Shown one piece after another: positions 42,420 to 63,069 of a stretch of DNA of 64,000 nucleotides. Below the pieces are notes generated by a model. That model worked only from the letters and a program-made list of their open reading frames with translations, was not told where the DNA came from and searched no databases. Numbering within the stretch: the first letter of the stretch is position 1; the number at the start of each line of letters is the position of its first letter. The translations under genes were made by a program, and so were the position numbers. The DNA lies in contig JBFMAY010000002.1 of the NCBI GenBank assembly GCA_040755455.1, forward strand, positions 32,001-96,000, read 5' to 3'. The stretch comes from Thermodesulfobacteriota bacterium. GTDB lineage: Bacteria > Desulfobacterota > Desulfobulbia > Desulfobulbales > SURF-16.

Positions 42420-42501
42420 TTTGGGAATGCGGATCGCGGATTGCAGATTTAACAAAGTTGAAAAATCATAAATAGCCCAAGAGCAATGGGGGAGAAAAGA
42501 T

Positions 42502-43002: not shown

Positions 43003-43010
43003 GGGGCGCC

Positions 43011-45252: not shown

Positions 45253-45262
45253 AGGGCCGACC

Positions 45263-46102: not shown

Positions 46103-48330
46103 GCGTGCAGGCCATGAAAAAGGATGCCAGCCGGGCCCTGCCTTACGGGGAAAGTTTCGCTCATCTCTCTGATGAGCTGACACGGCTGGATCTGCTGATC
46201 AGCCGGCAGGTGCTCAGGCTGCGGGCCGGGATGCCGGAGCAGCAGCCCGGCAGCGGCCTGTATATCTCCCCTGACCAGGTTGACCGGCTGCTGCAAGAAG
46301 GCGAGGGCATCCGCCCCGATCCGCCGGAGATCATGGCCAATCGCCGGCAGTTTGAGCTGCTGAGCCAGGAGATCAGTGCCAGGGTGGCCGCAAGCCTGGA
46401 GGAGAAAATCTTTCTTGCCCTGCCCTGCCTGGCCCGGATGTTCGGCCTGTCAGCAATTGAACTACAGGCCCTGGTCATCTGCCTGGCGCCGGAGCTGGAC
46501 CGCAGGTACGACACCCTCTATGCATACCTGCAGAACGACATCACCCGCAAAAAACCGTCCGTGGATCTGGTCCTGCAGCTGCTGGCCGACAGCCGCGAGG
46601 AGCGCTGGCAGCTGCGCCAGCTGTTTGCCGGCCACGCCAAGCTGCTGCGCAGCGGCATCCTGCAGAGCGTGCCTGATCCCCACAGCCCGTCCGGGGCATC
46701 TGATCTGGCCATGCTGCTCAAGGTGGACCGCCGGATGGTTGATTTCATCATCGGCAACAACGCCCTGGATGGCCGGCTCAACCGTTGCGCCCGGCTGCTC
46801 TCCCCCACTGTAACGCTGGATGAGGTGGCAGCGGCGCCGGAAATCAAGACCCTGCTGCTACACCTTGCCAGCCGCCACATCAGGCGGGAGATGATCAGGG
46901 AGAAGATGGTGATCCATCTGCACGGCCCCGCCGGCAGCGGCAAAACCACTTTGGCCCTGGCGCTGTGCCGGGAGCTGCAGTGCCCCATGCTGGTGGTCGA
47001 CCTGGAGCTGCTGCCCGGAGGTGACGAGGAATGGGAAAACACCGTGCGGCTGGCCCTGCGGGAGGGGCTGCTGACCCGCTCTATTCTTTTTTTCGACAAC
47101 ATCGACGTCCTGACCGAGCGGGCGGATAAGGGCAGAGCGTTGCTGAAAAAGACGGCCAGGGCCATTGCCGAGTACGGTTGGCTGGTCTTCCTGGCCGGGG
47201 AAAAGGCCTGGTCCGGCGAGGGATGCTTTGACGAGCTGCAGTTCCTGTCAGTTGTCGTGCCCGCGCCCCAGGTCCCCATCAGGGAGCAGGTCTGGCAGAA
47301 CATGCTGGCCGCCGAACCGGTTGACATCGGCAGGAAATGGTCGGCCAAGCTGGCCCGGCGCTTCGCCCTGACCCCCGGCCAGATAGGGCAGGCGGTCCGT
47401 TTTGCCCATACCCTGCAAGCTGCCGGCGGCCGGGACAGGAAACTGTCGCTCTCCGGGCTGTCCGCCGCCTGCCGCAGCCAGTCCCATCATAGGCTTTCGG
47501 AACTGTCCGTCAGGATTGAGGCGAAATATACCTGGGCCGACCTGGTGCTGCCGGAGGAAAAAACCGCGCTGCTCAAAGAGATCTGCGCCCAGGTCAAGCA
47601 TCAGTACCGGGTCTTTGCCGAATGGGGCTTTGAACGCAAGGTGGCCTACGGCCGGGGGCTCAGCGTGTTGTTCTCCGGCCCGCCGGGCACGGGAAAAACC
47701 CTGGCGGCCCAAGTCATGGCGGCTGAACTGCAGCTTGATCTCTACAAGATCGATCTCTCCGGCGTGGTCAGCAAGTACATAGGCGAGACGGAAAAAAACC
47801 TCAACCGGATATTTGCCGAGGGGGAGCGCAGCAACGCCATCCTCTTCTTTGATGAGGCGGACGCCCTGTTCGGCAAGCGCACCGAGGTCAAGGACGCCCA
47901 CGACCGTTACGCCAACATCGAGACCAGCTATCTGCTGCAGAAGATGGAGGAGTATGAGGGGATGGTCATCCTGGCCACCAATCTGCGCTCCAACATGGAT
48001 GAGGCCTTTACCCGGCGCATCCGCTTCATTGTCGAGTTCCCCTTTCCGGATGCCGCCTTGCGGGCCCGCATCTGGAAAAGCCATTTTCCCGGGGAGGCGC
48101 CGGTGCGTGACGGTATCGACTATGATTTCCTGGCCAGACGCTTCCAGGTGGCAGGGGGCAGCATCCGCAACATTGTCTTAAATACCGCCTTCCTTGCCGC
48201 GGAAAGCAATGAGGAGATTAGCATGAAGCATATCCTGCACGGGGTCAGGCGGGAGTTCGAGAAAATTGGCAAGCTGTGGAATGAGGAAACCATCAACCGC
48301 ACTGATTCTACCAGAAACCGAGGAGACTAA
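46099..48330 (+). CDS. CIS AAA+ ATPase (Afp15/Pvc15-like)
   Basis: Two P-loops (GPAGSGKT, GPPGTGKT), VVSKYIGETEKNL, DEADALFGKR, DRYAN. Confidence 0.95.
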   Translation: MSVQAMKKDASRALPYGESFAHLSDELTRLDLLISRQVLRLRAGMPEQQPGSGLYISPDQVDRLLQEGEGIRPDPPEIMANRRQFELLSQEISARVAASLEEKIFLALPCLARMFGLSAIELQALVICLAPELDRRYDTLYAYLQNDITRKKPSVDLVLQLLADSREERWQLRQLFAGHAKLLRSGILQSVPDPHSPSGASDLAMLLKVDRRMVDFIIGNNALDGRLNRCARLLSPTVTLDEVAAAPEIKTLLLHLASRHIRREMIREKMVIHLHGPAGSGKTTLALALCRELQCPMLVVDLELLPGGDEEWENTVRLALREGLLTRSILFFDNIDVLTERADKGRALLKKTARAIAEYGWLVFLAGEKAWSGEGCFDELQFLSVVVPAPQVPIREQVWQNMLAAEPVDIGRKWSAKLARRFALTPGQIGQAVRFAHTLQAAGGRDRKLSLSGLSAACRSQSHHRLSELSVRIEAKYTWADLVLPEEKTALLKEICAQVKHQYRVFAEWGFERKVAYGRGLSVLFSGPPGTGKTLAAQVMAAELQLDLYKIDLSGVVSKYIGETEKNLNRIFAEGERSNAILFFDEADALFGKRTEVKDAHDRYANIETSYLLQKMEEYEGMVILATNLRSNMDEAFTRRIRFIVEFPFPDAALRARIWKSHFPGEAPVRDGIDYDFLARRFQVAGGSIRNIVLNTAFLAAESNEEISMKHILHGVRREFEKIGKLWNEETINRTDSTRNRGD

Positions 48331-48335
48331 CTGAC

Positions 48336-49118
48336 ATGTTTGCCGCTCGTAAAACCAGACAGCATCGTGATCACGACAACGCCGGCTGGAGCCGCAATGC
48401 CGCCGCCGCGGCCCAAACCCATGCCGACATCCAGCCGCCTGCGGCCCAGTCCCTGCAGCGGGCCATGGGCAATCAGGCCATGCAGGCCATGGGAGATAAA
48501 AGTCACGCCTCCGGGCAGTCCCTGCCCCGCATCCGGCTGACAAACTTCTCGGCCGATGCGGCAACCGGGCAGATGAACAACAACGGCTCATTTGCGCCGC
48601 GGCTGCCGGACAAGAGCACCAACCAGACCGCCGGCGAGCAGGACCAGAACGCCTCGCTGACCTCCTTTGCCACGGAGTCCAGGGGGGTGGGCATTGTGGT
48701 GGAGATCACCAACGGCACCAGTTCGCCGGATTACCCGAACGGCTACCGCTGGACCCAGACCATTGACACCAATGTGCCCCTGGGCGGGACCACCTCCCCC
48801 TATGTTGACCCGCGGCCCAATGACGACACCAAACCATTTTACTGGACCGACGCCGAGGCGGCGGCACGGCCGACCACCTTTATCGATCATCCGTCGCGCA
48901 ATGCCCCGGCCAGCGGCACCACCACCTGGGATGCCGTGCTGTCGCTCAACGGGGTGAACGGCACCACGGTGACCAGGCTCGATTCCCTGGCCTACGGCTT
49001 TTCCATTGACACGGCGGGAACCGTATCACCCCATACCCCCACCAGTCCCGGGGGCGGGCTGGTGACCACCCACCAGATGACACTGGCTTCGGAATTTCCG
49101 GGATGGACTTTTAACTGA
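48336..49118 (+). CDS. Candidate CIS cargo/effector
   Basis: Low-complexity N-terminus with 'LQRAMGNQAM'; uncharacterised beta-rich C-terminal domain. Confidence 0.6.
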   Translation: MFAARKTRQHRDHDNAGWSRNAAAAAQTHADIQPPAAQSLQRAMGNQAMQAMGDKSHASGQSLPRIRLTNFSADAATGQMNNNGSFAPRLPDKSTNQTAGEQDQNASLTSFATESRGVGIVVEITNGTSSPDYPNGYRWTQTIDTNVPLGGTTSPYVDPRPNDDTKPFYWTDAEAAARPTTFIDHPSRNAPASGTTTWDAVLSLNGVNGTTVTRLDSLAYGFSIDTAGTVSPHTPTSPGGGLVTTHQMTLASEFPGWTFN

Positions 49119-49161
49119 GGGGGAAAATAGGATAAGACGGATAAATTTATGGATTTCCACC

Positions 49162-49560
49162 ATGCATGAGCAGCTGAAAAACAGCCCGGACTTCTCGGTG
49201 CGCATCGTCTGGAACGGCCACGAGGACAAGCCGTTCTACCGGGCCCATCTGGTCTCGGCCTCGCGCCGGGACTGGCTTGAGGACCAACCGTTCTGGGGCA
49301 ATGCGGTGATCAGCAGCGGGGAATACGGCCGGCTGTTTGCCATCCTGGAACAGCGCGGACTGCAAATCGACGAGGGATCCCATAAGGATAAGTTCGGCTA
49401 CAGCATGGAATTACAGACTGATGAGAAAACAGGCTATTGTTACCTGGGACTCACGGAAGAGACGGTGGCGACCCTGACCCTGATGCTTGCTGCCCTGGCG
49501 CCGGAGAACAGACCGCCGCTGCAGGGCATCATTGATCGGCTGCAGGGCATCAGATTATAG
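49162..49560 (+). CDS. Hypothetical protein (candidate immunity/partner)
   Basis: 132-aa soluble ORF directly after the candidate effector. Confidence 0.55.
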   Translation: MHEQLKNSPDFSVRIVWNGHEDKPFYRAHLVSASRRDWLEDQPFWGNAVISSGEYGRLFAILEQRGLQIDEGSHKDKFGYSMELQTDEKTGYCYLGLTEETVATLTLMLAALAPENRPPLQGIIDRLQGIRL

Positions 49561-49564
49561 ACTT

Positions 49565-49589
49565 TAGGGGCGGGCCTTGTGCCCGCCCT
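49565..49589 (+). repeat. REP-like palindrome
   Basis: TAGG-GGCGGGC-CTTGT-GCCCGCC-CT, intergenic. Confidence 0.6.
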
Positions 49590-49631
49590 GTTGGGGCAAC
49601 ATGGCGGCAATACACTTTATAAGGAATAATC

Positions 49632-50378
49632 ATGTCGGGCGGCTTTTCCAATAAACCGAAAATACTGCGCGGGGCCTTTGTGGAGTATGGACTCAGCATC
49701 CCTCCCCTTATTGTGCCGTTCCAGTTCAATCCGGTGCAGCTTACCAGGAACCGCAGCCTGATCTTCTCCGTACCCAATGCCCCGGCCCAGACAGGGCCTG
49801 CAGGCGAGACCGAGGAGGGACGAGCCACCAGGGTTGCGGCCAGCCGATCGACGCTGCGCCAGTTTCACCAGCGGGAGGAGTTCTCCGATCTGCTGGAGCT
49901 GCAACGGCAGCAGCAGGTGCAGGTGGGCGAGGAGTCCATCACCTTTGACATCCGCCTTGACGCGACGGACAAGCTCAATGACGGCGACGCCATCACCGAG
50001 CAGTTCGGCATCATGCCGCAGCTCTGCACCCTGGAACTCATGGTCTACCCCAAGAGCGAAAGCATGCTGGGCGCGGCGCTGGGCGCGCTGCTCGGCTCAT
50101 CCGGCGGGTTTTCCTTCACCCGCGGGGAGAACCCGCCGATGATTCTCTTCATCTGGGGCCGCAAAAGGGTACTGCCGGTGAACATCAACAGCATGAACAT
50201 CACGGAGACGGAGTTCAGCACGGATCTCAACCCCATCCGGGCAAGCGTGGCGGTGAACCTGACGGTGATCGAGGGGCCGAACCCAGTGTTTAAATATTCA
50301 AAGGCGATGAAAGAGGTCATGTCCGTGCTCAATGTGACCAATCTCGTCAATATAACCGATGTGGTGATTCCGGGATAA
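49632..50378 (+). CDS. CIS tube-initiator-like protein (Afp7/Pvc7 N-terminal type)
   Basis: FQFNP..L.R, PP..LF.WG...LPV.I.S..ITE..F...LNPIRA.V. Confidence 0.85.
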   Translation: MSGGFSNKPKILRGAFVEYGLSIPPLIVPFQFNPVQLTRNRSLIFSVPNAPAQTGPAGETEEGRATRVAASRSTLRQFHQREEFSDLLELQRQQQVQVGEESITFDIRLDATDKLNDGDAITEQFGIMPQLCTLELMVYPKSESMLGAALGALLGSSGGFSFTRGENPPMILFIWGRKRVLPVNINSMNITETEFSTDLNPIRASVAVNLTVIEGPNPVFKYSKAMKEVMSVLNVTNLVNITDVVIPG

Positions 50379-50381
50379 GCC

Positions 50382-50972
50382 ATGTTTTTCAAGAACTCAC
50401 GTTACAGAAAACAGCCATTCGCGGTGACCATCGACGCCAAGGGCCGCAGGCTCAAGTCCGTGACCCTGCGCGCCGCGCCGGAAACCAGCGGCACCTTCCT
50501 GCACACCATCGAGGAGGGCGACCGGCTCGATCACCTGGCCTACAAATATTACAAGGCCCCAAAAAAATGGTGGCGCATCATTGATGCCAACCCGGAATTC
50601 TCCTCGCCCCTTGACCTGCTCGGTTCAGGGGTGATGAGGTGCGTGCGCATTCCCCTGGCCCATGATGACGAGGCGGATGAGCCGCCCTGGAGCCAGCTTG
50701 CCGCCGGCCTTGCCGCGCTCATCGGCGTTGACGCATACCGGTTTGCGGAAACCGTGCTGCTCAACGAGGACAGCCTGAATGTGGCCGGCGAGACGATACC
50801 GGTCGCCACGGAGAGCTATGAGCGGTCGGTGATCGTCAGCTACAACAGTATAAACATTACTGAGAGCGAGCTTGCGGCAGCCGTGAACGCGGCCGGCTTT
50901 ACCGCGGGCCGGCCGGAGAATATCGGCCGGATCGGCAGGCAGATTATCATTGCCCCTGACGGCCCGGCGTAA
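50382..50972 (+). CDS. LysM/tail-X-like baseplate protein with an extra C-terminal domain
   Basis: SRY, 'GDRLDHLAYKYY....WWRIIDANP'. Confidence 0.85.
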   Translation: MFFKNSRYRKQPFAVTIDAKGRRLKSVTLRAAPETSGTFLHTIEEGDRLDHLAYKYYKAPKKWWRIIDANPEFSSPLDLLGSGVMRCVRIPLAHDDEADEPPWSQLAAGLAALIGVDAYRFAETVLLNEDSLNVAGETIPVATESYERSVIVSYNSINITESELAAAVNAAGFTAGRPENIGRIGRQIIIAPDGPA

Positions 50973-50982
50973 AAAGCGCACC

Positions 50983-52092
50983 ATGGAAAACGAGCATTTA
51001 ACCATCGAGATTGACGGGGCGGAGATCAGCGACCTCTATCCCCGGCTCATCAGTCTGGAGGTTGAGCATGACATTGAACTGGCCGCCATGTTCCGCATGC
51101 AGTTTTCCCTGCTGCTTGACCAGGGGGGCTCGTGGGGCATCCTGGATGACGAGCGTTTGCGGATCTGGAAACAGGTGAACATCCGCGCCGGGTTAAGCGA
51201 GGCGGACGATGAGCTGATGACAGGCTATATCACCCATGTCACCCCTTATTTTGACGGCGACCCGGCCCGCTGCGTGCTGGAGGTATGGGGCATGGACGCC
51301 AGCGTGCTCATGGACCGGGAGGAGAAGCTTAAAGACTGGCCGAACAAGAAGGACAGCGATATCGCCTCCGAGATCCTCGGCACCTATGGCCTGACGCCCG
51401 ATGTGGAGGACACCGAGGTGATCCATGACGAGGCGCTGTCCACCATCATCCAGCGGGAGACGGACATGCAGTTTTTAAAAAGACTGGCCCTGCGCAACGG
51501 CTTTGCGTGCTATGTGGAGGGCGATACGGCCTTTTTCAAAAAACCGCGGCTGGATGATCCGCCCCAGCCGGTGCTGTCCGTCCACTTCGGCAGCGAGACC
51601 ACGGTCAACCGTTTGTCGCTCACGGTCAATGCCCTGAGCCCGGCCAATGTGGCCATGTTCCAGATCGACCGGAACACGAAAGAGGTGCTGGAGGCCGAGG
51701 CCATTGCCAGTGAGCAGACGACCCTGGGCGCTGATGATGCGGCAAGCCATCTCGGCCCGGGCATGAATCCGGCCCAGGTTTTCGTCGGCCGCACCGCAGC
51801 AACCGGCACCCCGGAGATGACTGCCCTGTGCCGGGAACTGTACCATCAGGGCGAATGGTTTGTGGAAGGGGAAGGGGAAACAGAGGCCAACCAGTACGGC
51901 CACATCCTCAAATCGAGGAAAACCGTGACCATCAGGGGCATCGGTGAGACATACAGCGGGGTCTACTTTGTGAGCCACGTCACCCACATCTTCACCGATG
52001 ACGGCTACCGGCAGCTCTTCAAGGTCAAACGCAACGCCCTGCTGCCCACCGGCGCGGAAGAATTTTCATCCTCTTCTTCCGGGCTGCTGTAG
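50983..52092 (+). CDS. Baseplate hub protein (phage late control D / gp27-like)
   Basis: 'QRETDMQFLKRLA.RNG', 'YSGVYFVSHVTH'. Confidence 0.9.
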   Translation: MENEHLTIEIDGAEISDLYPRLISLEVEHDIELAAMFRMQFSLLLDQGGSWGILDDERLRIWKQVNIRAGLSEADDELMTGYITHVTPYFDGDPARCVLEVWGMDASVLMDREEKLKDWPNKKDSDIASEILGTYGLTPDVEDTEVIHDEALSTIIQRETDMQFLKRLALRNGFACYVEGDTAFFKKPRLDDPPQPVLSVHFGSETTVNRLSLTVNALSPANVAMFQIDRNTKEVLEAEAIASEQTTLGADDAASHLGPGMNPAQVFVGRTAATGTPEMTALCRELYHQGEWFVEGEGETEANQYGHILKSRKTVTIRGIGETYSGVYFVSHVTHIFTDDGYRQLFKVKRNALLPTGAEEFSSSSSGLL

Positions 52093-52158
52093 GAGCGGTT
52101 CGCAAACCGCCCCTTGGCGCCACATGGGATTCAGGGCACCCACAAGGGGTGCACCTAC
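52089..52158. repeat. REP doublet (REPIN-like): two inverted GTAG-type palindromes
   Basis: GTAGGAGCGGTTCGCAAACCGCCCCT ... AGGGCACCCACAAGGGGTGCACCTAC; the GTAG supplies the upstream stop codon. Confidence 0.75.
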
Positions 52159-52192
52159 GGATGGGAGGGAAAGAAAGAGATGAGGGGATTAC

Positions 52193-53074
52193 TTGTCGCT
52201 TGAAAAGATCGTTGCCAGACTGGTGGACAAGGTGGAACACCGTTATTACGGCAAATACCGTGGTATCGTGGTGGACAATGCCGACCCCGAGCATCTGGGC
52301 AGATTAAAACTCAAGGTGCCGAGCATTCTGGGCAACGACATTGTCACCGGCTGGGCCGCAGCCTGTGTCCCATACGGCGGGGAGGCGAACCAGGGCATGC
52401 TGTTCATCCCCGAGGTCAACGCCGGGGTGTGGGTTGAATTTGAAGAGGGGGATCTGGAGTTTCCCATCTGGGTGGGCGCCTTCTGGAGCAAGCCGGACGG
52501 CGAGAGCGAGCTGCCCAAACCCAATGACCCCGACGGCGCGGAGCAGGGCGGGGTGCAGGACCCGCCCACCCGCAAGATCATTAAAACGGTCAAGGGCCAC
52601 TCCATCCAGTTCGAGGACAAGGACGGCGAGGAGCTGATCACCATCGTCGAGGCGGTGAACAGCAATGTCATCACCCTGGACGCAAACGGCATCACCATTA
52701 AAGACGGGGCCGGCACCATCACCATTGAAGACGCGAACGGCAACCAGGTGTTGCTGGACAGCAGCGGCATCACCTGCACGGACATGAGCGGCAACGAGAT
52801 CAAGATGGACAGCCAGGGGGTAAAGGTGTCTGATGCCAACGGCAACACCATCAAGATGGATGCCATGAGCGGTTTCCCGGCGGGACCGGGGGTGAAGGTC
52901 AATGGCGGCTCAGGCCGGGTGTGCATGGAAGGGCTGATCAACTGGCTGATGACCCATCAGCATGTGGGCAATCTGGGGGCGCCGACCCCGCTCTTTCCGG
53001 GGAGCATGGTCGATCTCACCATGGCCCTTTCCGGGGTGAATGCCCTGCTGTCAAAAAAAATAAAGGTGGAGTAA
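52193..53074 (+). CDS. Spike protein (P2 gpV / gp5 OB-fold + beta-helix)
   Basis: YYGKYRGIV.DN.DP...GR, PEV..GVWVEFE.GD..FPIW.G, repeated 'D.NGN.I.MD', terminal HQH. Confidence 0.92.
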   Translation: MSLEKIVARLVDKVEHRYYGKYRGIVVDNADPEHLGRLKLKVPSILGNDIVTGWAAACVPYGGEANQGMLFIPEVNAGVWVEFEEGDLEFPIWVGAFWSKPDGESELPKPNDPDGAEQGGVQDPPTRKIIKTVKGHSIQFEDKDGEELITIVEAVNSNVITLDANGITIKDGAGTITIEDANGNQVLLDSSGITCTDMSGNEIKMDSQGVKVSDANGNTIKMDAMSGFPAGPGVKVNGGSGRVCMEGLINWLMTHQHVGNLGAPTPLFPGSMVDLTMALSGVNALLSKKIKVE

Positions 53075-53081
53075 TGCGACC

Positions 53082-53432
53082 ATGGGCCTGATTATCGGCG
53101 ACGAAAATGCCTCCCAGGGCATGACCAAGGCGATCTACGACAAGATCCGCCAGGTCATGGAGCCCATTGACGGCGCAAGCGAGGAGCAGATGACGGATAT
53201 CCGCGCCGGCTGGAAGAAGCTCTCCCATGCCATCGCCCACGGCGTGGTCACCCATATCAAGTCGAACATGGAGATCAAAAAGATCAAGACCATCGATAAG
53301 GTGAGCGTGCAGGGTTCCACCGGCACGGCCGCGCCCAGCGCCCACTCGCACAGTGTGGCCATTGCGGCCGAGGACGGGAATCTGCAGTTTACCGAGACCA
53401 ATTATCCCGCAGGACAGGGACATGTGGAGTGA
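53082..53432 (+). CDS. Small hypothetical protein between spike and gp25, with an HxH motif
   Basis: 116 aa; 'AHSHS'; no PAAR motif. Confidence 0.7.
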   Translation: MGLIIGDENASQGMTKAIYDKIRQVMEPIDGASEEQMTDIRAGWKKLSHAIAHGVVTHIKSNMEIKKIKTIDKVSVQGSTGTAAPSAHSHSVAIAAEDGNLQFTETNYPAGQGHVE

Positions 53433-53437
53433 CAGCC

Positions 53438-53806
53438 ATGGCAGGTGAAGTGACCACATTCGGCTTCCCCTTTGCGGTGAACAAGGCGGGCGGCATCAGC
53501 GCCAGCGGCGGCGACGAGGCCATCCGGGGCAAGATTATCCAGGTGCTGTTTACCGCGCCCGGCGAAAGGGTGAACATGCCCGAATTCGGCTGCGGCATCT
53601 TCAACCTGGTGTTTGAGGCCAACAACACCATTCTCGCCGCGGCCATGGAGTTCACCATCGGCCAGGCCTTGGCCCGCTGGCTGGATGAGGACATCATCGT
53701 GGACGGCGTTGACGTGGAGTCCCGGGAAGAGACCATCACCGTGGAGATCTCCTACACCAGAAGGCAGGATTTGAGCCGGGAGACGGTGCGGATACATTTT
53801 CGATAA
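53438..53806 (+). CDS. GPW/gp25 family baseplate protein (Afp9-like)
   Basis: FPF, 'LFTAPGERVNMPEFGCG'. Confidence 0.93.
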   Translation: MAGEVTTFGFPFAVNKAGGISASGGDEAIRGKIIQVLFTAPGERVNMPEFGCGIFNLVFEANNTILAAAMEFTIGQALARWLDEDIIVDGVDVESREETITVEISYTRRQDLSRETVRIHFR

Positions 53807-53865
53807 AGACGTTCAAGCGTTTGAGCGTTTAAACGCTGGAACGCTACCACCCGAAGGGTAAGAAT

Positions 53866-55425
53866 ATGGCAGAGATCAAGAAGATAGACGAACACACCAT
53901 TGTGGACTACATGGCCCGGGACTATGACAGCCTGCTGCAGTCCATGCGGGAACTCATTCCGGCCAGGCTGCCGGAGTGGAAAAGCTATGCCTCGGAGGCC
54001 GATTTCGGCAATGTCCTGCTGCAGCTCTTTGCCCACATGGGCGACATCCTCAGCTACTATCAGGACCGGGTGGCCAATGAGAGCTTCCTGGGCACGGCCC
54101 AGAGCAGACGAAGCGTCATTGATCACCTGAAACTGATCGGCTACCGGCTGGCCACCGCTGCCCCGGCCTCCGCCACCCTGGACCTGACCATTCCGGCCGC
54201 CTGCACGGCGGTCATCACCCTCCGCCGGGGCGACGCCTTTGCCACCAAAAGCCAGAAGGACAAGCCCAGCGTCCGCTTTGAATACAGCCGGGAGGACAAC
54301 CTGGTGATTGACTGCAGCACCCTGTCCGTTGATCCGGCAACCAGCAAGAAATACTTCAGGGGCGTGCCGGTTGAGGAGGGACGCCTGGTTAAAAACGAGA
54401 TCATCGGCTTTTCCGACGGCGGCAAAAACCAGCGATTCACCCTGGCCCATGCCGGGCTGATCCTACGCTCAGCCGGGGCAACCCAGAAAATCAACCGGGA
54501 TATCATTATCACCACCAGCCTGGGCGAGACCATTGACGAGTGGACCCTGCAGGAAAGCCTGGCCTTCAGCCGGGAAAAGCAGAAGGACTACACCGTGGAG
54601 ATTGACGATGAGGACTCGGCCACCATCATTTTCGGCGACGGCACCTTTGGCGCCATACCCGCAGGCGGCGCAACCATCAGGGCCACCTACCGGGTGGGCG
54701 GGGGGCTCAAGGGCAACACCCCGGCAGGCACCATCCAAACCATCGTCGACGCCGCGCAGCTGGTGTTAAACGGCATCAAGGCCACCAACCCGGAGGCCGC
54801 CACCGGCGGCGCGGAACGGGAGAGCATCAAGCATGCCGTCATGCACGCCCCGTCCGTGTTCCGCTCGCTGAAACGGGCGGTCACCGAGGATGACTACAAG
54901 GCCCTGGCCCTGGACTTCAAGGGGGTGGGCAAGGTGCGGGCCGTGTCCGCCAGCTGGAACCGGGTCACCTTGTTTGTCGCACCCGAGGGCGGCGGCCGGG
55001 TGAGCGACGTGCTGGAGGCAGGTCTGCTGGCCTACTTCGAGGACAAGCGGCCGGTTACCACCATTATCACCATCGAGGATGTGGATTATGTCAAGCTTTA
55101 CATCACCGCCGCCATCGGGGTGAAAAGCTACTATCCGCCTGATGACGTGAAGGAAAAGGTGATGGCCGCGGCGGCCGCGCTGCTGGCCTTTGCCAATGTC
55201 GATTTCGCCCAGACCATCTATCTCTCCAAATTCTACGAGGCGATCGAGGCGGTGGAAGGGGTGGATTACGTCACCATCAGCGAGTTCAGGCGCCAGAATC
55301 AGCCGGCCGGTTATGTTGAACCGGCGGGCAAGATCACCATGAAGGAAAATGAGATCCCCGTTATTCCCGCAGGTGTCCCGGCCTATGCCAAGGGCATCAG
55401 AATCGTTATCGAGGGTGAAAGCTGA
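53866..55425 (+). CDS. Baseplate J-like wedge protein (Afp11-like)
   Basis: DYMARDYDS, D.LSYYQDR.ANE.FL.TA, FGDG..G.IP, RAVT..DY. Confidence 0.93.
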   Translation: MAEIKKIDEHTIVDYMARDYDSLLQSMRELIPARLPEWKSYASEADFGNVLLQLFAHMGDILSYYQDRVANESFLGTAQSRRSVIDHLKLIGYRLATAAPASATLDLTIPAACTAVITLRRGDAFATKSQKDKPSVRFEYSREDNLVIDCSTLSVDPATSKKYFRGVPVEEGRLVKNEIIGFSDGGKNQRFTLAHAGLILRSAGATQKINRDIIITTSLGETIDEWTLQESLAFSREKQKDYTVEIDDEDSATIIFGDGTFGAIPAGGATIRATYRVGGGLKGNTPAGTIQTIVDAAQLVLNGIKATNPEAATGGAERESIKHAVMHAPSVFRSLKRAVTEDDYKALALDFKGVGKVRAVSASWNRVTLFVAPEGGGRVSDVLEAGLLAYFEDKRPVTTIITIEDVDYVKLYITAAIGVKSYYPPDDVKEKVMAAAAALLAFANVDFAQTIYLSKFYEAIEAVEGVDYVTISEFRRQNQPAGYVEPAGKITMKENEIPVIPAGVPAYAKGIRIVIEGES

Positions 55426-55427
55426 CC

Positions 55428-57758
55428 ATGCGTCTCAAGGCGATAACAGCAGCAGCCTGTCCTGAAGGCAACAGGATAGCGCTTTCCTGGACCAACCCTG
55501 ATCCGGCAGGCTTCCCGGGCATCAGGGTGGTGCGCCGGGAAAAGACCTTTCCCGTCTCGCCGCAGGACGGCGTCATCGTGGCCCAAGGAACAGAGCTTGC
55601 CAGCGGCTTCAATGCCGACGGCGAGGCGCTCTACTCCATTATCGACAGCAATCTGCAGGGCGAGACCCACTATTATTACACCCTCTTTCCCTATCTGGGA
55701 GCCCCCCCGGTCTTTGCCTTCGATTACCATAACCGCTGCGTGGCCATGGCCACGCAGGCATACGGGTTCGGAGCCCGGATGTTTGACCAGCTGCCGCGCA
55801 TCTATCACCGCTATGACACGGTGCTGCCCGCCGACCCTGCCGAGGTGCCGGCGGAGCTTGGCCAGGCCGGCCAGCTCAGGCGCTTTCTCGAGGTGCCGGG
55901 CAGCATGCTCGATCTGCTCTATAGCCATGCGGGCGCCGCACTCGATCTGCACAACACGGACCGCATGGACGGACGGCTGCTGCCCCTGCCGGCCCAGTGG
56001 ATCGCCTGGCAGATCGACTACCGGCTGGAAATCGACGCCCAGCGCAACGAGATCCGCAACGCCCCCCATCTTTACAAAACCGTGGGGCTGATCCCCACGG
56101 TGGAAGCCACGGTGAAGCGCCTCACCAACTGGGAAAGCAGGGTAAAGGAGTTTGTCCACAACATCTTTCTCAGCAACAACCCGGAAAGGCTCAACCTGTG
56201 GACCATGCGCCTTGATGAGGAAGGGCAGTGGCAGGAGGCGACAGAGCCCTTTTCGCTGAATTTCGCCTATGAGGGCCGGCCTGCGGCAGTCACCGATGCG
56301 GACGGCGCCATCTGGCTTTTCTATCATACCCGCAAAATGAACCGATGGGATATCTGGCACAAAACCTGGTCAGCGGCAGACGGCTGGTCGCCGAGCAGTC
56401 CGCTTTCGGAAAGCCGGAACATTGATAAGCATCCCGCCGCGGCCCTGCAGGGCACCACCCTGTGGCTCTTCTGGAGTTCCTACAGCGAGCAGGATGGCAC
56501 CTGGCGCATTCTTTACCAGCGCAGAAGCGCCGGGGCGTGGTCAGAGGCGGCAACCTTCGGCACAGATTTGCTTCAGCGCCGGGCACCTGCGGCAACGGCG
56601 GACAGCAGCGGCGGCCTCTGGCTCTTCTGGCTGGAGCTGGACGCCGGCCGCTGGCAGATGAAGTACAACCGTCATGACGGCACGGACTGGCAGCTCGCCT
56701 CCCCTGCCCTGTTCCCGCAGGATAGCGGGCTCGATGCCAGGGTTGACAGCGAGCCGTTTGTGCTCGCTCATACCAGCGGTGCGGTGGAGCGGCTCATGGT
56801 GCTCTGGTCGCGCAAGGAGCCGGCGGCCCTCCCAGGCCAGACCAGGTGGACTGTGGCCTGCCGGGTCAAGGGCTCCGTCGATCCGGCAAACAGCGCGGAC
56901 TGGGGAGGCGTCCTGCTCAAACCCAAGGATACGGCGGACGTAAACGACAGCGACCCCGTTGCCCTGGCCGGGCCGGCCGGCAATGTCGAGATCTTTTTCA
57001 GCTCGGACCAGAGCGGCAGCTGGTCCCTGTGGCGCACCGGACTTGATCCCGCCTCCTGCGCCTGGGCCGCCGCCGAGCAAATCAGCCGCTCGCCCTATAC
57101 GGAACGCTATCCCCTGCCGCTTTTGCTCCGCGGCGAGAGAATGGTCCTCTTTCGGACCAACCGCAACCTCACATACAGCAGCGATGTATACAAGGCAACC
57201 AAGACCATGGATATGCGCTATGCCGGCAGTGTCAGCTGCATGGCGGCCAACATTGCCAAAAACTCCCTGCGCGGCAAATTCACCGATTTCCAGGCCTACA
57301 CCCATGATGTCGGGGTGGACGGCAAAATGACGGACAGCAACTGGTACTCCCGCCAGACGCTGGGCATCTACCTCACCCCGGACACTGAGGATCCGGGCCT
57401 CATTCTGCGCAACCAGAAGTTGTTGCGCGGGGTGCTGCACCAGTTTCTGCCCATCCAGGTGCGCTATGTCTTTGTCATCGAGCCCGCCATCTACAAGGAA
57501 CAGATCTACACCTACGATTTCCCCACCGCGGAAAACGCACGGTTCATTGAAGAGCAATATACAGACAGCCTGACAACGGTGAGTTCCGAGGTTTACAGCG
57601 GACCCGCCGACAGTTATGCCGACCGGATTCCGGAATGGCGCTGGCTGCGCTCCTGGAGCACGGAGTACACCGCGGGCGGCAGTGTTGATTTTGCCGCCGG
57701 GCCGGTCAGCACCCGCTTCAGGACGTGGCATGTCGGTGTAACAGAAGGAGAGGAGTAA
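55428..57758 (+). CDS. Baseplate/tail protein I-like wedge protein with N-terminal FN3-like and internal Trp-rich propeller-like repeats
   Basis: 'LPRIY.RYD...LRRFL', 'LLP..AQWI.W'; repeated 'PAA..D..G.(I/L)WLF(W/Y)'. Confidence 0.78.
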   Translation: MRLKAITAAACPEGNRIALSWTNPDPAGFPGIRVVRREKTFPVSPQDGVIVAQGTELASGFNADGEALYSIIDSNLQGETHYYYTLFPYLGAPPVFAFDYHNRCVAMATQAYGFGARMFDQLPRIYHRYDTVLPADPAEVPAELGQAGQLRRFLEVPGSMLDLLYSHAGAALDLHNTDRMDGRLLPLPAQWIAWQIDYRLEIDAQRNEIRNAPHLYKTVGLIPTVEATVKRLTNWESRVKEFVHNIFLSNNPERLNLWTMRLDEEGQWQEATEPFSLNFAYEGRPAAVTDADGAIWLFYHTRKMNRWDIWHKTWSAADGWSPSSPLSESRNIDKHPAAALQGTTLWLFWSSYSEQDGTWRILYQRRSAGAWSEAATFGTDLLQRRAPAATADSSGGLWLFWLELDAGRWQMKYNRHDGTDWQLASPALFPQDSGLDARVDSEPFVLAHTSGAVERLMVLWSRKEPAALPGQTRWTVACRVKGSVDPANSADWGGVLLKPKDTADVNDSDPVALAGPAGNVEIFFSSDQSGSWSLWRTGLDPASCAWAAAEQISRSPYTERYPLPLLLRGERMVLFRTNRNLTYSSDVYKATKTMDMRYAGSVSCMAANIAKNSLRGKFTDFQAYTHDVGVDGKMTDSNWYSRQTLGIYLTPDTEDPGLILRNQKLLRGVLHQFLPIQVRYVFVIEPAIYKEQIYTYDFPTAENARFIEEQYTDSLTTVSSEVYSGPADSYADRIPEWRWLRSWSTEYTAGGSVDFAAGPVSTRFRTWHVGVTEGEE

Positions 57759-58285
57759 TGGAACATATCGGCAATCAGTTAAAGGGCATATACCGGGATA
57801 TCCTGAAAACGGCAGACGGCAGCGTGATCCACGACAGCGGCTGGGTCAGCAATACCATCGTCGAGCGGTGCCGCATCCTGCTGGCGGGTTTCATGCGCAA
57901 CGACCCCACCGACGGCATTCACCACCTGGCCTTCGGCCAGGGGCTGGCAACATGGGACAGCGCCGGTGTGCCTGCCCCGGACCCCACGGCCACGGCACTG
58001 GTGGCGCCGTACAATCCGCCCATTGCCGCGGCAAGTCTCACCATGACCTATCTGGACGAAGACAACAACGAGGTGGCGGCCCCGACCAGCAGGCTGCAGA
58101 TCACGGCAATCCTGGCCCCGGGTTATCCCGCGCCGCTGGCGCCGCTGACCACCTACCCTTTACGGGAATTCGGTCTGTTCGGCAGATTTAACGGCGCGGA
58201 TTACATGATCAATTCAATCAGACATGCGGTGATTCATAAAGACGCATCAGCCACGCTGATCAGGATGATCCGCCTGTTTTTTTAA
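57758..58285 (+). CDS. CIS-associated structural protein (tail collar/fibre-attachment-like)
   Basis: TAATG coupling; 'N.IV', 'LA.G.G', 'LREFGLFG'. Confidence 0.72.
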   Translation: MEHIGNQLKGIYRDILKTADGSVIHDSGWVSNTIVERCRILLAGFMRNDPTDGIHHLAFGQGLATWDSAGVPAPDPTATALVAPYNPPIAAASLTMTYLDEDNNEVAAPTSRLQITAILAPGYPAPLAPLTTYPLREFGLFGRFNGADYMINSIRHAVIHKDASATLIRMIRLFF

Positions 58286-58417
58286 TAAAAAAACGTTCCG
58301 CAGGGCAGGAGCGGGCCATGCCCTCTCCTGCTGCAGGATGACATTACTTTCCCAGGTTTCGGGCTTACCCGGCAACGGTAAACCGTGAACTGACTTTCAC
58401 TGCAAGGGGTGTACAAT

Positions 58418-59749
58418 ATGGGCAACTTCTCGAGAAATACATTTGACCGGTTAAAACACTATGTCGGTGTCCGCCTGCAGCAGGGTGTGCCACTCATAGA
58501 TGCGGACTGGAACGAACAGGAGGATATCCGCAAGTATGAACTGCAGGCCTTTCTGAAATGGTTTGCCGGCAACGGCGTGCCAAGCGGCAACGACGGCTTC
58601 CGCATTCTGGCCGCGGCGGGCACGACCAACAACTTCGATATCCAGGGCGGCAACGGCACGGCCCTGGGCGCGGGCCGCATCCTGGTGGAAGGCATGGACG
58701 CCATGCTGGAAAGCACCATGCGCTACAGCAGCCAGCCACTGTACAACAATCCCATCCTGGCCGCCCGCTGGGGGGTGGCGGTCATCCCCCCGCTCACCAC
58801 GCCCATCGCCGCCAGAGAGGATCTGGTCTATATCGATGTGTGGGAGCGCGAGGTGGACAGCAGCGAGGACGGCAATCTGATCAACCCGGCCATCGGCATC
58901 GAGTCCTGCGTGCGCCTCAGGCGCGAATGGGCGGTGCGCGTGGCCCAGGGCGCCGTCTCCCTGCCCGCTCCTCCGGCCGGCCATGGTTATTACACCCTGG
59001 CCCGCATCAAACGGGCGGCCGGCAATACCACCATCCTGGCCGCGCAGATCGAGGACCTGCGCACGGTGGGCATCAATCTCTCCGACCTGGCGGCGGAGAT
59101 CATCGACGCCAGGGGCATGAAGGGCAATGTGGGCAACCGGCTGGACGAATCGCTGACCAAGGGCGGCCAGCTGCGGTTCAATGTGGTGGGCAATGACCAG
59201 GTGAAGGCCGATGCCGCCATCAACGAGTCAAAGATCCTCTTTGCCGCCACCGGCCATGACCACAGCGGCGGGGCCGGTGGCAACATGATCGGCACAAGCG
59301 GCCTGGAAAACAATGCCGTGACCAACGCCAAGCTGGCCGATCTTTCGGTGACCAACGCCAAACTGGTCAATACCTGCGTCACTACCGCAAAAATTTATGA
59401 CGATTCGGTGACCACGGCCAAGATCGCTGACGATACCGTCACCCGCGCCAAACTTGATCTCACGGTAGTGAACAGCGGCAGTGTAGTCGATCTCGCGCCC
59501 GGCACCTATGTCACCCAGTTGGTACAGACCAACGTCAGCTGGGCCGACGGATTAAAGAGGATCTATATGCCGGCGGTCGCCATTACCAGCGTTACCGGCA
59601 GCGGCATGGCCGATATCCGCCATGAATTTGTCTACCGGGCGTGGTCGGGCAGTGACACGTACGATGTCTATATCCGGATCAGCAATGAATCCGGCGGCAG
59701 TGAACTGGTGGATCTTTACTGGTATGTTTACATCTTTGCGGAGAATTGA
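58418..59749 (+). CDS. Tail fibre protein (DUF6519-like N-terminus, 10-aa repeats, distal tip domain)
   Basis: GNFSR.TF...KHY.GV.LQQG....DADWNE; GHDHSG; five 'VTxAK(L/I)' repeats. Confidence 0.8.
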   Translation: MGNFSRNTFDRLKHYVGVRLQQGVPLIDADWNEQEDIRKYELQAFLKWFAGNGVPSGNDGFRILAAAGTTNNFDIQGGNGTALGAGRILVEGMDAMLESTMRYSSQPLYNNPILAARWGVAVIPPLTTPIAAREDLVYIDVWEREVDSSEDGNLINPAIGIESCVRLRREWAVRVAQGAVSLPAPPAGHGYYTLARIKRAAGNTTILAAQIEDLRTVGINLSDLAAEIIDARGMKGNVGNRLDESLTKGGQLRFNVVGNDQVKADAAINESKILFAATGHDHSGGAGGNMIGTSGLENNAVTNAKLADLSVTNAKLVNTCVTTAKIYDDSVTTAKIADDTVTRAKLDLTVVNSGSVVDLAPGTYVTQLVQTNVSWADGLKRIYMPAVAITSVTGSGMADIRHEFVYRAWSGSDTYDVYIRISNESGGSELVDLYWYVYIFAEN

Positions 59750-59752
59750 GCA

Positions 59753-60157
59753 ATGAGCCACAAAAAAATGATATGGAAGGAATTTCAACGCACCGGCATC
59801 CTTGATTCCCCGGACGAAAAGGTGCAGAGTTTTGTGCAGTATCTGCGAAATTGCCGGGAAAACTGCTGGGAGCAGATCATCCCTGAATTCAAGGAAAAAT
59901 ACTACGACTGCTTCGACACCATTGTCCCGGTGCTGGCCCGCATGAACGATCCCCTGATCCAGCTGGTACTGGCCCGGCATGCCGATGCCAGCAAACCTAA
60001 GGAGCGGGAACTGCTGGTAACCATGGCCAAGGAGGCGGATGCCGAAAAGAACCCGGTGCTGCTGAAACGGATCGCCGCCATGAAAATTACCACGGTCACC
60101 AATGAGTTGAAAAAAAGGACCTTGCCGGAAAATCTAAGAAAATATACGGAAGGCTAA
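59753..60157 (+). CDS. Hypothetical helical protein
   Basis: 134-aa ORF 3 bp after the fibre gene, with GGAG upstream. Confidence 0.7.
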   Translation: MSHKKMIWKEFQRTGILDSPDEKVQSFVQYLRNCRENCWEQIIPEFKEKYYDCFDTIVPVLARMNDPLIQLVLARHADASKPKERELLVTMAKEADAEKNPVLLKRIAAMKITTVTNELKKRTLPENLRKYTEG

Positions 60158-60174
60158 TAAGATACGTTGTTTCG

Positions 60175-60823
60175 ACCGGTCTCCGCGTGGGGCGCCGCCG
60201 TGACGGCAGATGCCGATCAATGCGGGAAATGGCGGACCGCCGCACCGCAAGAGTGGTTAGGGAGGGATGGGGTTTGGGGCAGTACATCGCCGTTGTCCCC
60301 GGGTCTCCCGAAGGCGGGAAGCGCTGGCGCTCCACCCGGAGGCCGGTCGGATTGAACTTGGCAGTGTGGGAAAAACAGCAATGAGGTTGTAACTGAGGGA
60401 ATAGATAATCTCTAACCGGTCTCCGCGTGGGGCGCCGCCGTGACGGCAGATGCCGATCAATGCGGGAAATGGCGGACCGCCGCACCGCAAGAGTGGTTAG
60501 GGAGGGATGGGGGTTTGTGGCAGTACATCGCCGTTGTCCCCGGATCTCCCGAAGGCGGGAAGCGCTGGCGCTCCACCCGGAGGCCGGTTAGAGCAAGCAT
60601 AATGATGTAAAAAGAAAAACAAGGCTGCAACTGAGAGGACAAAATTTCGACCGGTCTCCGCGTGGGGCGCCGCCGTGACGGCAGATGCCGATCAATGCGG
60701 GAAATGGCGGACCGCCGCACCGCAAGAGTGGTTAGGGAGGGATGGGGGTTTGTGGCAGTACATCGCCGTTGTCCCCGGATCTCCCGAAGGCGGGAAGCGC
60801 TGGCGCTCCACCCGGAGGCCGGC
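60175..60823 (+). repeat. Array of three ~174-nt near-identical self-complementary elements (60175-60347, 60415-60588, 60650-60823) with 67- and 61-nt spacers
   Basis: Direct comparison: copies 2 and 3 differ only at the last base; copy 1 differs from copy 2 by one indel and two substitutions. Confidence 0.97.
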
Positions 60824-60853
60824 CGGATATCTCTCAGGTTGGCCCATGAGACA

Positions 60854-61807
60854 ATGGCCCACATGATAAAAGGCTTTTATAACGACCTGCTTTTTTACGG
60901 TCACAACAGAGTGCGGCTCGACCGGGGCTGGCGCCCTAATCTCATCGTCGGGGGCTGCAACCGGCTGCTGGCCGCGCTGATGAAAGGCCAGCAGGGGCTT
61001 GGCGGCATCCTGTATCTGGCGGTGGGCGAGGGGTTCAAAGAGTGGGATGCGGCCCTGCCGCAGCCGCAGCCGGCCAGCACCAGGCTCTATAAGGAAATCC
61101 TGCGCCGCCCCATCGCAACCGAGCAGATCATTTTCCTGGACAGCACGGGTCAGCCGGCCGCCACGCCAACCGGCCGCCTGCAGATCAGCATCGAACTGAC
61201 CCGGGAGGATTTCCCGGCCAACGGCTTCCAGCCGGTCAGGGAATTCGGGCTGTTCGGCGGCAATGCCACGGCAGATGCCGACAGCGGTTTCATGATCAAC
61301 CATGTCATGCATCCCCGCATCGACATCACGCAAGGACTGACCCTGTGCCGGGTCCTGCGTCTCGATTTTTCCCAGGGGCCGGCCGTCCAAGAGGAAATCC
61401 GGGGCTTCGGCGCCGGCCTCGCGGCGCGCAGCATTGACGGCGTGGGAGATATCTATGGCCCGGCGCTGGCCACGGCCGGGGTCAACGTGCTGGGCGACTT
61501 CCTGGCCATGAACCCCCTTGCGCCACCGGCCGGCATTCCTGCCGTGAAACTGCGGGAATTCCGCGCCAAGGCCAGGATGGTCATGGCACTCAAGGTAGGC
61601 CTCGCCCCCTTTGCCGCCCTGTCCCATATCAACATCAGCCAACTGCTCAAGGAAAATCCCCAGACCCTGGCCGGCATGGCCAATACCTTTACGGTATCCG
61701 CGGAAATGGTGGCGGATCTGCAGGAGGAACTGATGCCCCTGCAGGTAGCGCTGGATGATGAGCAGTTACAGCAGCTGACCCTGGCCAGTCTGGTGCAGGA
61801 ATCGTAA
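60854..61807 (+). CDS. Paralog of 57758-58285 with an extra C-terminal HhH/DUF4332-like domain
   Basis: Colinear similarity (KG.Y.D.L, GW..N.IV..C..LLA..M, PT.RLQI, REFGLFG, MIN...H..I); 'IDGVGDIYGPALATAGV'. Confidence 0.78.
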   Translation: MAHMIKGFYNDLLFYGHNRVRLDRGWRPNLIVGGCNRLLAALMKGQQGLGGILYLAVGEGFKEWDAALPQPQPASTRLYKEILRRPIATEQIIFLDSTGQPAATPTGRLQISIELTREDFPANGFQPVREFGLFGGNATADADSGFMINHVMHPRIDITQGLTLCRVLRLDFSQGPAVQEEIRGFGAGLAARSIDGVGDIYGPALATAGVNVLGDFLAMNPLAPPAGIPAVKLREFRAKARMVMALKVGLAPFAALSHINISQLLKENPQTLAGMANTFTVSAEMVADLQEELMPLQVALDDEQLQQLTLASLVQES

Positions 61808-62982: not shown

Positions 62983-62992
62983 GTCATTACTA

Positions 62993-63069
62993 TGGTGGGC
63001 GAGACGGGATTCGAACCCACGACCTTTGGCTTCGGAGGCCAACGCTCTATCCAGCTGAGCTACCCGCCC
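62993..63069 (-). tRNA. tRNA-Arg (anticodon CCG)
   Basis: GGGCGGGTAGCTCAGCTGGATAGAGCGTTGGCCTCCGAAGCCAAAGGTCGTGGGTTCGAATCCCGTCTCGCCCACCA: 77-nt cloverleaf with encoded CCA. Confidence 0.97.

Follow-up and report, generated by a model that had tools for sequence, protein, structure and literature searches.

Organization of the locus

The DNA analyzed in this work is a 64,000-nt stretch of a Thermodesulfobacteriota genome (contig JBFMAY010000002.1, positions 32,001 to 96,000; hereafter the window), which carries an operon for an extracellular contractile injection system (eCIS). Near the 3' end of this operon, we found a tandem array of three repeats that almost certainly encodes a functional structured RNA on the + strand. 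The features in this part of the operon are, in order, a 186-aa gene, a DUF6519 gene, a 134-aa gene, the RNA array, and a 314-aa gene (Table 1), and the array has the orientation of all genes that flank it.

The array occupies positions 60170-60827 as three units arranged head to tail with a period of 235-240 nt (2.7 copies with 91% matches according to Tandem Repeats Finder), each unit consisting of a GC-rich element of ~185 nt and a purine-rich spacer of 52-58 nt. A repeat search delimited three copies of 173 nt. Copies 2 and 3 are 100% identical (60415-60587 vs. 60650-60822), and copy 1 has 98% identity to the other copies in a gapped comparison, with one 1-nt indel. Copy 2 is bounded by a 27-nt inverted repeat (60410-60436 with 60567-60593) that is 89% complementary.

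A preliminary description of this locus, made from the sequence alone, had drawn attention to short flanks that extend the closing stem of each repeat and differ among the copies. These flanks are indeed present. The pair TTCG/CGGA surrounds copy 1 (60171-60174/60348-60351) and copy 3 (60646-60649/60824-60827), and the pair CTCTA/TAGAG surrounds copy 2 (60410-60414/60589-60593), while the core of copy 2 is, as that description also stated, the core of copy 3. The identity between copies 2 and 3 breaks off at the very edge of the copy-specific flanks. In copy 3, an A-C mismatch (60650/60823) splits the outer four pairs from the remaining stem, and the more distant complementary pair reported for this copy, CTGAGAG (60631-60637) and CTCTCAG (60831-60837), ends 16 nt before the ATG at 60854. 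By our own arithmetic, four consecutive pairs would arise at random with p ~0.02 if G-U pairs are allowed, and five Watson-Crick pairs with ~0.001; the complementarity of the flanks is real and well above chance.

Table 1. Coordinates of the RNA array and of the surrounding features in the window
Feature	Coordinates	Strand	Remarks
RNA copy 1	60171..60351	+	P1 outer pairs TTCG/CGGA, one G-U; covariance-model match 60169-60353, 187.9 bits
RNA copy 2	60410..60593	+	P1 outer pairs CTCTA/TAGAG, all Watson-Crick; covariance-model match 60409-60594, 199.4 bits
RNA copy 3	60646..60827	+	Core as in copy 2; P1 outer pairs TTCG/CGGA; covariance-model match 60644-60829, 195.8 bits
Spacer 1	60352..60409	+	Purine-rich; motif kept across genomes (GAAAAGTGAAAATGAGG.TGTAACTGAGG in relatives)
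Spacer 2	60594..60645	+	Homologous to spacer 1 (GAAAAACA..GGCTGCAACTGAGAGG)
Outer extension P0, last copy only	60620..60846	+	CTGAGAG/CTCTCAG and GGC/GCC pairing; flank duplex -18.3 kcal/mol, z = -2.2
eCIS operon holding the array	40473..61807	+	Sheath, tube, Pvc16, double AAA ATPase, CIS tube, GPD hub, spike, gp25, Baseplate_J, fibre module
186-aa baseplate-arm-like gene	57725..58285	+	Paralogue of the N-terminal half of the 314-aa gene
DUF6519 (eBAP5) eCIS tail-fibre gene	58409..59749	+	Tail-fibre PHROG matches
134-aa upstream gene	59753..60157	+	No family assigned; stop ~15 nt before copy 1
314-aa downstream gene	60863..61807	+	Length from conserved M; earlier in-frame ATG at 60854
tRNA-Arg(CCG)	62993..63069	-	After the operon

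Validation of the assembly

Tandem repeats that are nearly identical could in principle be produced by an assembler that collapsed or expanded a single element, and the fact that none of the contigs of public DNA runs contains the whole array would agree with this. We examined unitigs from DNA runs of two different studies (X1 and X2). In both, separate unitigs bridge copy 1, the spacer, and copy 2 (60318-60444), copy 2, the spacer, and copy 3 (60559-60674/60679), and copy 3 and the downstream gene (from 60793). In X1, the unitig of the shared core has a depth of 25.3, compared with 6-8 for the flanks, which corresponds to a ratio of ~3. Moreover, two to three tandem copies with the same order of flank types occur in independently assembled genomes and in metagenome contigs. 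The chance that the array is an artefact is practically nil, and the mis-assembly that the preliminary description had named as a possible refutation is excluded for practical purposes, with each unique junction bridged in two studies; no single read-level span was seen.

Secondary structure of the RNA

One unit folds on the + strand with a predicted energy of -109.1 kcal/mol (z = -6.2; 0 of 200 shuffled sequences were as good), compared with -93.2 kcal/mol on the - strand. For comparative analysis, 26 copies from 11 related genomes were aligned with MAFFT in a manner not fitted to any structure, and the counts in this section refer to this alignment unless a set of 39 copies is named. RNAalifold derived 56 consensus pairs in nine helices, with 17 pairs changed on both sides. 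Standard pairs account for 97.5% of the 1455 cells, compared with 91.3% in shuffled alignments (0 of 500 reached the observed value), and pairing falls to 35-52% when the partners are slid by 1-3 columns.

In the closing stem, P1, 24 pairs are conserved and 96.6% of the cells are paired; the stem reaches 24-27 bp in the three copies of the window. Both-side changes were found at 13 of these 24 pairs, including all four pairs that correspond to the flanks. These four outermost pairs are standard in 24, 26, 25, and 25 of the 26 copies, and each occurs as three to four pair types (e.g., CG:15/UA:9 and GC:15/AU:10). Because pairing drops to 16, 18, and 13 of 26 copies (50-69%) in the three columns beyond, the conserved stem ends at the flanks. 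The compensatory changes in P1 and the loss of pairing in the slid alignments demonstrate that the fold is under selection, as had been proposed in the preliminary description, and the complementarity of the flanks noted there holds among the homologs.

Within P1, the order of elements is a variable hairpin (P2), a junction GAAA(A/U), P3 (4 bp), GA, P4 (5 bp), and a three-way junction. P3 and P4 are two stacked short helices. The three-way junction carries P5 (ACC/GGU with a variable loop) and a long P6, which is composed of GGGAG/CUCCC, a 3x3 internal loop (UGA or GGA opposite GAU) that can be read as tandem G-A pairs, GGGG/CCCC, and a variable tip. Purine-rich strands (GAA and GAAG) lead back to P4 and P3. 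Invariant columns concentrate in the junctions and the inner helices, and P1, P2, and all three terminal loops vary. This pattern seems characteristic of a compact domain for binding of a ligand or a protein, and not of a small RNA that acts by base pairing. By eye, some of the conserved motifs could be taken for a hammerhead-like element or for CsrA sites; both readings were discarded, as these motifs vary between copies.

The strand that folds can be told from the non-Watson-Crick pairs. The alignment contains 106 G-U cells and 12 A-C cells, such that 97.5% of cells are paired on the + strand and 91.1% on the - strand; therefore, the folded molecule is a + strand RNA rather than a DNA palindrome. 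Consistent with this, the + strand is the more stable one in 37 of 39 copies (mean -105.8 vs. -93.9 kcal/mol). Among these 39 copies, the stability of a unit ranges from -88 to -121 kcal/mol, and the minimum-energy folds of single copies recover a mean of 77% of the consensus pairs. A mutual-information search of the 39-copy alignment for tertiary pairs or pseudoknots singled out only pairs of P1 and P2, apart from signals at column pairs 38/129 and 130/160 that may reflect shared ancestry. A protein-coding reading of the repeats was rejected because the copies differ by 1-nt indels and because the length differences in the P2, P5, and P6 loops are not multiples of three.

Distribution of the RNA

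This RNA is restricted to one lineage, and was found only in two genera of Desulfurivibrio-like bacteria. All three matches in its own genome (3.98 Mb) lie at this one locus. Among the 61 relatives searched at the DNA level, matches always sit in the syntenic locus, and 11 genomes carry the RNA when the own genome is included: six of nine genomes of the own genus (five of eight without the own genome) and all five genomes of a second genus in the same family, with none in the other genera searched. The covariance model R1 detected the RNA in seven of 151 genomes sampled from the class, and these belong to the same two genera. A pattern scan in which each of 185,579 species was represented by one genome yielded 11 loci, distributed over 10 contigs and all from uncultured organisms titled Desulfurivibrio sp., Desulfobulbia, Thermodesulfobacteriota, or older equivalents. 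A scan of metagenomes with the pattern yielded 12 loci, of which eight were confirmed by the covariance model; the other four (L051, L056, L059, and L060) failed it and were dropped. We also treated a 22-nt match in genome G049 (E = 0.009) as chance.

No match to the RNA was found by blastn in collections of phages and plasmids, and viral contigs gave no match to two patterns; a looser 19-mer had eight matches in viral contigs, none of which passed the covariance model (scores below 10 bits). No family of Rfam 15, riboswitches, ribozymes, Y RNA, 6S, and tRNA-like RNAs included, matches the array (4227 models; cmscan of 59000-62000 with E up to 1). The sole match in this region was mir-4599 with 18.7 bits (gathering score 100) at 59230-59293, outside the array, and ARAGORN detected no tRNA or tmRNA in 60000-62900.

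Evolution of the array

The arrays contain one (L054), two, or three copies. Because the spacers are homologous to each other, and are kept across genomes, the duplicated unit must have included the spacer. Within the own genus, the flanks follow a fixed order: the first copy has TTTCG/CGGA-like or CTGAT/ATCAG-like flanks, the middle copy C(T/C)T(C/T)TA/TAGAG, and the last copy TTCG/CGG(A/G). We compared the core and the outer P1 separately among six three-copy arrays. The identity of cores is 92.8% within a genome and 84.7% between genomes, both at the same and at different positions of the array. For the outer P1, the identity is 73.8% within a genome, compared with 85.5% between genomes at the same position and 74.4% at different positions. 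Since the flanks follow the position in the array and the cores follow the genome, the triplication predates the divergence of these genomes. The preliminary description had argued that the locus is not a simple recent tandem duplication, and this is correct insofar as the duplication is older than the divergence of the genus. Its suggestion that the cores have been homogenized is also borne out: the cores have been homogenized by gene conversion in concerted evolution, and the outer stems escape this process and change by compensatory substitution.

With cores this similar, the 5' strand of a unit is also open to pairing with the 3' strand of the preceding unit, and the minimum-energy fold of the whole array mixes units. 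When strands of 30 nt were compared, the cognate P1 was more stable than the adjacent non-cognate pairing in all 21 neighbouring pairs, by a mean of 12.9 kcal/mol (5.0 and 7.2 kcal/mol in the window). The copy-specific changes in the outer P1 thus make the strands of each unit pair better with each other than with those of a neighbour; as far as the sequence can tell, this advantage may have been selected for, or it may have arisen incidentally through compensatory drift that proceeded independently in the copies.

The last copy has an outer extension, P0 (Table 1). In relatives of the g1 type, a P0 of -14.1 to -22.3 kcal/mol is predicted for nine of 12 last copies, with differing sequences, and first and middle copies mostly lack it (-1.9 to -8.9 kcal/mol, with one exception of -13.4). 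The last copies of the second genus (g9 type) have a weak P0 or none (-4.0 to -13.0 kcal/mol). P0 stops 16-25 nt short of the downstream gene, leaving the start codon and the ribosome-binding site uncovered.

The spacers of some relatives hold further repeats. In L046 (2290-2460, minus strand), a hairpin element of ~110-170 nt (CCACAGAGAGCACAGAG ... CTCTGTGG, followed by a T-run) lies in the spacer before the last copy, and the same element is present in the arrays of L061, L048, L055, and L058. This element is dispersed, with at least 45 matches each in genomes G003 and G001, 21 in G016, and none in the own genome, and it may act as a terminator inside the arrays of those relatives. In the second genus (L043 and L047), the two copies are separated by a spacer of 300-440 nt that is occupied by short tandem repeats of the AAGTGCCTAAAG type together with their complements. 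Long imperfect hairpins can form from these repeats, and in L047 a run of N is masked. A conserved cysteine-rich open reading frame (ORF) of 20-21 codons (MAGAAAVCSCC...) lies between the last copy and the gene start in L043, L047, and L041. The stop codon of this ORF, which was found in the second genus only, overlaps the start of the 314-aa homologue (TGATG).

Genes adjacent to the array

The array lies immediately 5' of the 314-aa gene in 14 of the 15 loci that have the downstream side, and within the family, the 314-aa gene occurs in 11 of 40 genomes, exactly those that carry the RNA. The synteny around the array is conserved in general, and both sides can vary. The 134-aa gene is found upstream in 10 of 18 related loci, and another ORF replaces it directly upstream of the array in five loci. 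The protein downstream is only 48-52% identical across the two genera.

Over its N-terminal ~170 residues, the 314-aa protein is paralogous to the 186-aa protein, with 36-41% identity (41% in the own genome), and phrog_5417, a family of unknown function, is matched both by the 186-aa gene and by the 314-aa gene in its N-terminal half (60863-61375). An AlphaFold model of the 314-aa protein has a mean predicted local distance difference test score (pLDDT) of 83 and a helical C-terminal half, and its N-terminal 170 residues resemble phage A511 gp105 and the phi812 baseplate arm (Foldseek E ~1e-4). Among 120 matches listed, a helix-hairpin-helix match to Pfam was found in seven of the 314-aa homologues. 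The operon thus has two versions of a fibre-network arm, one before the fibre gene and one after the RNA array. The DUF6519 protein corresponds to eBAP5, a fibre anchor of eCIS according to PMC12923769. For the 134-aa protein, no match in Pfam or PHROG and no convincing lead in the Atlas were obtained.

Only one full-length homologue of the 314-aa protein was found outside the family, in genome G227, and no analogous RNA lies upstream of it; a search of viral contigs for 314-aa homologues returned only short paralogues of the N-terminal domain. No toxin domain was recognized among the operon ORFs scanned, and none of the 26 distinct ORFs of the window that were scanned in or beside the operon has a Pfam match to a reverse transcriptase, which was looked for in view of a possible retron. 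A stretch of 14 nt inside the 314-aa gene (61268-61281) perfectly matches the P2 hairpin of each of the three copies. A template-like link between the array and the downstream gene was rejected, since this identity occurs in this genome only and the other 14 arrays share 8-11 nt; it is probably due to chance or to a very recent local event.

At one of the five loci with another ORF in place of the 134-aa gene (L057:235-2942), this ORF has 256 aa and a weak sub-threshold match to an AbiEii-like nucleotidyltransferase (17.1 bits, cut-off 22.5); it is preceded by a DUF6519 fibre gene whose C-terminal part differs and by a 225-aa ORF. The RNA array forms the border between a variable fibre cassette and the conserved last gene. 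The operon is followed by ~1.8 kb (61808-63620) that contain no ORF of 110 aa or longer.

Transcription and possible function

In the region 59600-62400, we detected no promoter- or terminator-like sites except for a weak terminator-like site at 59605 inside the fibre gene, and copy 1 begins ~15 nt past the upstream stop codon. The own genome encodes an RNase III (contig 15; PF14622, 125.4 bits with a cut-off of 35). A substrate of this enzyme is expected to have a flank duplex of ~20 bp or more; P1 provides 24 conserved pairs and is longer in some copies.

The reading that we prefer, and put forward tentatively, is that the array gives rise to co-transcribed, self-folding, and RNase III-processed stable RNAs that bind a common partner. 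The array would be transcribed together with the fibre genes as part of the eCIS operon transcript. Each unit would fold locally, and the copy-specific outer pairs would help to hold the register despite the identical cores. The long perfect duplexes of P1 may then serve as the substrate of a double-strand-specific nuclease, for which RNase III is the candidate, and single-strand cuts in the A-rich spacers are conceivable too; processing by a nuclease at P1 or in the spacers seems quite possible. Such cleavage would separate the message of the fibre module from that of the last gene and would free one to three P1-capped stable RNAs per transcript. The invariant purine-rich junction core could bind one common partner, with a protein of the same injection system as the foremost candidate; that the partner is a protein encoded by the eCIS is in itself doubtful.

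Several observations weigh against this reading. Only P1 and P2 are proven by covariation; the inner helices P3-P6, being nearly invariant, are uninformative in this respect and are supported by energy and by G-C/G-U exchanges. The aligned copies are close kin from two genera; hence, independent events are fewer than the cell counts suggest, and the shuffle control cannot be taken as a probability. The similarity of the cores could also be maintained by gene conversion alone, with no partner in common. The third copy of L061 (L061:2965-3148, minus strand) has the weakest P1 (-36.2 kcal/mol, compared with -43.6 to -60.4 in the other 35). The 5' strand of its P1 is first-copy-like and the 3' strand matches the single copy of L054; this copy may represent a fresh gene conversion in which the stem was broken before compensation. 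In genome G007, two unrelated genes separate the last copy from the 314-aa gene (L080:1809-4432). Genome G227, which belongs to another family, has a 314-aa homologue (46% identity) with an upstream gap of 64 nt and no such RNA; since this genome has the gene without the RNA, the RNA is not needed by such injection systems in general and is a lineage-specific addition to the operon. Finally, the RNA libraries X18 and X20 contain no more than three low-depth contigs of relatives (<90% identity), for which DNA carry-over is possible and which show no ends; missing cover elsewhere in the stretch has no meaning in these runs. One of the contigs spans a core, the spacer, and the next core and another the last copy and the gene start, and they are a weak hint in favour of co-transcription.

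The two genes inserted in G007 encode a 371-aa NosD/beta-helix protein with a dockerin-like tail and a 369-aa protein with GDWDGDG repeats, and may be inserted cargo or an unrelated island.

Other explanations were weighed against the same evidence. The single position in the operon, with the same gene downstream in nearly all loci, could mark a cis-regulatory leader, namely, tandem riboswitch-like elements or protein operators that would sense a ligand or an unassembled protein of the injection system and set the expression of the 314-aa gene. The junction-rich, invariant core resembles an aptamer (a resemblance only), the copy number of one to three is as in tandem aptamers, and the outer helix of the last copy stops 16-25 nt before the start codon. 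However, a P1 of 24-27 bp with ~-50 kcal/mol is far too stable for the strand exchange of a riboswitch, no terminator follows any copy, an expression platform is absent, and the outer helix leaves the start codon and the ribosome-binding site free. Together with the intervening genes in G007 and the gene without RNA in G227, these features make a leader unlikely. The great stability of the units and their intercistronic position would also fit a passive module that stabilizes or insulates RNA by blocking 3' exonucleases and uncoupling expression, in the manner of repetitive extragenic palindromic (REP) or Correia elements. Concerted evolution has been demonstrated, and other hairpin repeats have been inserted in the same spacers of relatives. 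Nevertheless, a plain hairpin would suffice for such a role, yet the multi-junction core is near invariant across two genera whose downstream proteins share only 48-52% identity. In this reading, the core would have been kept merely by gene conversion and recent common descent, but gene conversion within genomes cannot explain why the junctions are invariant between genera while P1, P2, and the loops change freely. We consider a passive module quite improbable.

The preliminary description had also raised independent insertion into palindromic targets. The terminal inverted repeats of 27 nt on an element of ~185 nt, and the palindromic dinucleotides (CG or TA) beside the conserved ends, which could be read as 2-bp target duplications, would suit three insertions of a miniature inverted-repeat transposable element that has since decayed or been domesticated. 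This proposal did not hold up. There is one locus per genome, with all three matches of the own genome included in it, and the RNA has no match in the phage and plasmid collections and no confirmed one in viral contigs, whereas the truly dispersed hairpin repeat in the spacers of G003, G001, and G016 reaches the match numbers given above. The flanks are inverted complements rather than direct repeats, the spacers are homologous, the flank types are positional orthologues, and the excess of G-U over A-C cells reflects selection on one RNA strand rather than on DNA ends. A mobile element is therefore highly improbable. It is likewise very unlikely that the injection particle contains the RNA, as a physical component or as cargo. 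In that case, the helical C-terminal domain of the 314-aa protein might fix P1-capped units at the periphery of the baseplate, which would be compatible with the lack of a recognized toxin in the scanned operon ORFs and with the absence of the RNA elsewhere in the genome; G227, a relative with the protein and without the RNA, weakens this idea.

Comparison with known systems

The RNA represents a well-supported class with a complex fold that is absent from Rfam. Full-text searches (supplements not covered) found no literature that links contractile injection systems with structured or non-coding RNA or with Desulfurivibrio, and the main text of a recent catalogue of eCIS fibre genes (PMC12923769) does not contain the word RNA. 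As far as these searches went, this is the first structured RNA found tied to an eCIS. The array also provides a natural example of two forces that act on one set of repeats, namely, gene conversion of the cores and copy-specific compensation of the stems. The escape of the closing stems keeps each unit on its own partner strand, which bears on how misfolding is avoided in repeated RNA domains. If the RNA does control or belong to the fibre end, it would offer a handle on the regulation or assembly of systems that are engineered for protein delivery.

Processing stalks of RNase III are known from the stems of rRNA operons and from the early-mRNA sites of phage T7. As in these stalks, the 5' and 3' flanks of a structured RNA form a duplex of at least two helical turns inside a polycistronic transcript. 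The array differs in that it encloses a new core of 130 nt instead of an rRNA and in that its tandem units evolve in concert, and cleavage is here a prediction. Tandem riboswitch aptamers, such as those for glycine, are repeated junction-rich domains in 5' leaders. They share with the array the conserved cores and variable peripheral helices, whereas P1 of the array is far longer and more stable, and the array has no expression platform and no Rfam match.

In type III toxin-antitoxin systems, the antitoxin ToxI consists of repeats of ~36 nt that are followed by a terminator and the gene of an endoribonuclease toxin. Both are tandem direct RNA repeats immediately upstream of a protein gene, and ToxI is processed into units; in contrast, the unit of the array measures 235-240 nt, a terminator is absent, and the downstream protein has a baseplate-arm fold without a Pfam toxin match. 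The orphan large structured RNAs ROOL, GOLLD, HEARO, and raiA are Rfam families that often occur near phage-derived genes. Like these, the array RNA has a complex conserved fold of unknown function, but it is smaller, tandem, bound to one position of an operon, and without an Rfam match. The packaging RNA of phage phi29 (~120-170 nt) is encoded in a cluster of phage structural genes and works as a part of a machine. The likeness is loose and concerns only the idea of an RNA in the particle, as there is no similarity in sequence or in Rfam.

The Correia repeat-enclosed element of Neisseria can bind RNase III and be cleaved or protected, according to the account in PMC2649163. Similar to the array RNA, this element is 100-200 nt long and has long terminal inverted repeats; it is co-transcribed with its neighbours, as proposed for the array, and forms a hairpin that affects their mRNA. 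Unlike the array, it is mobile and exists in many dispersed copies, whereas the array is confined to a single locus and is distinguished by a conserved multi-junction core and by strand-specific G-U pairing.

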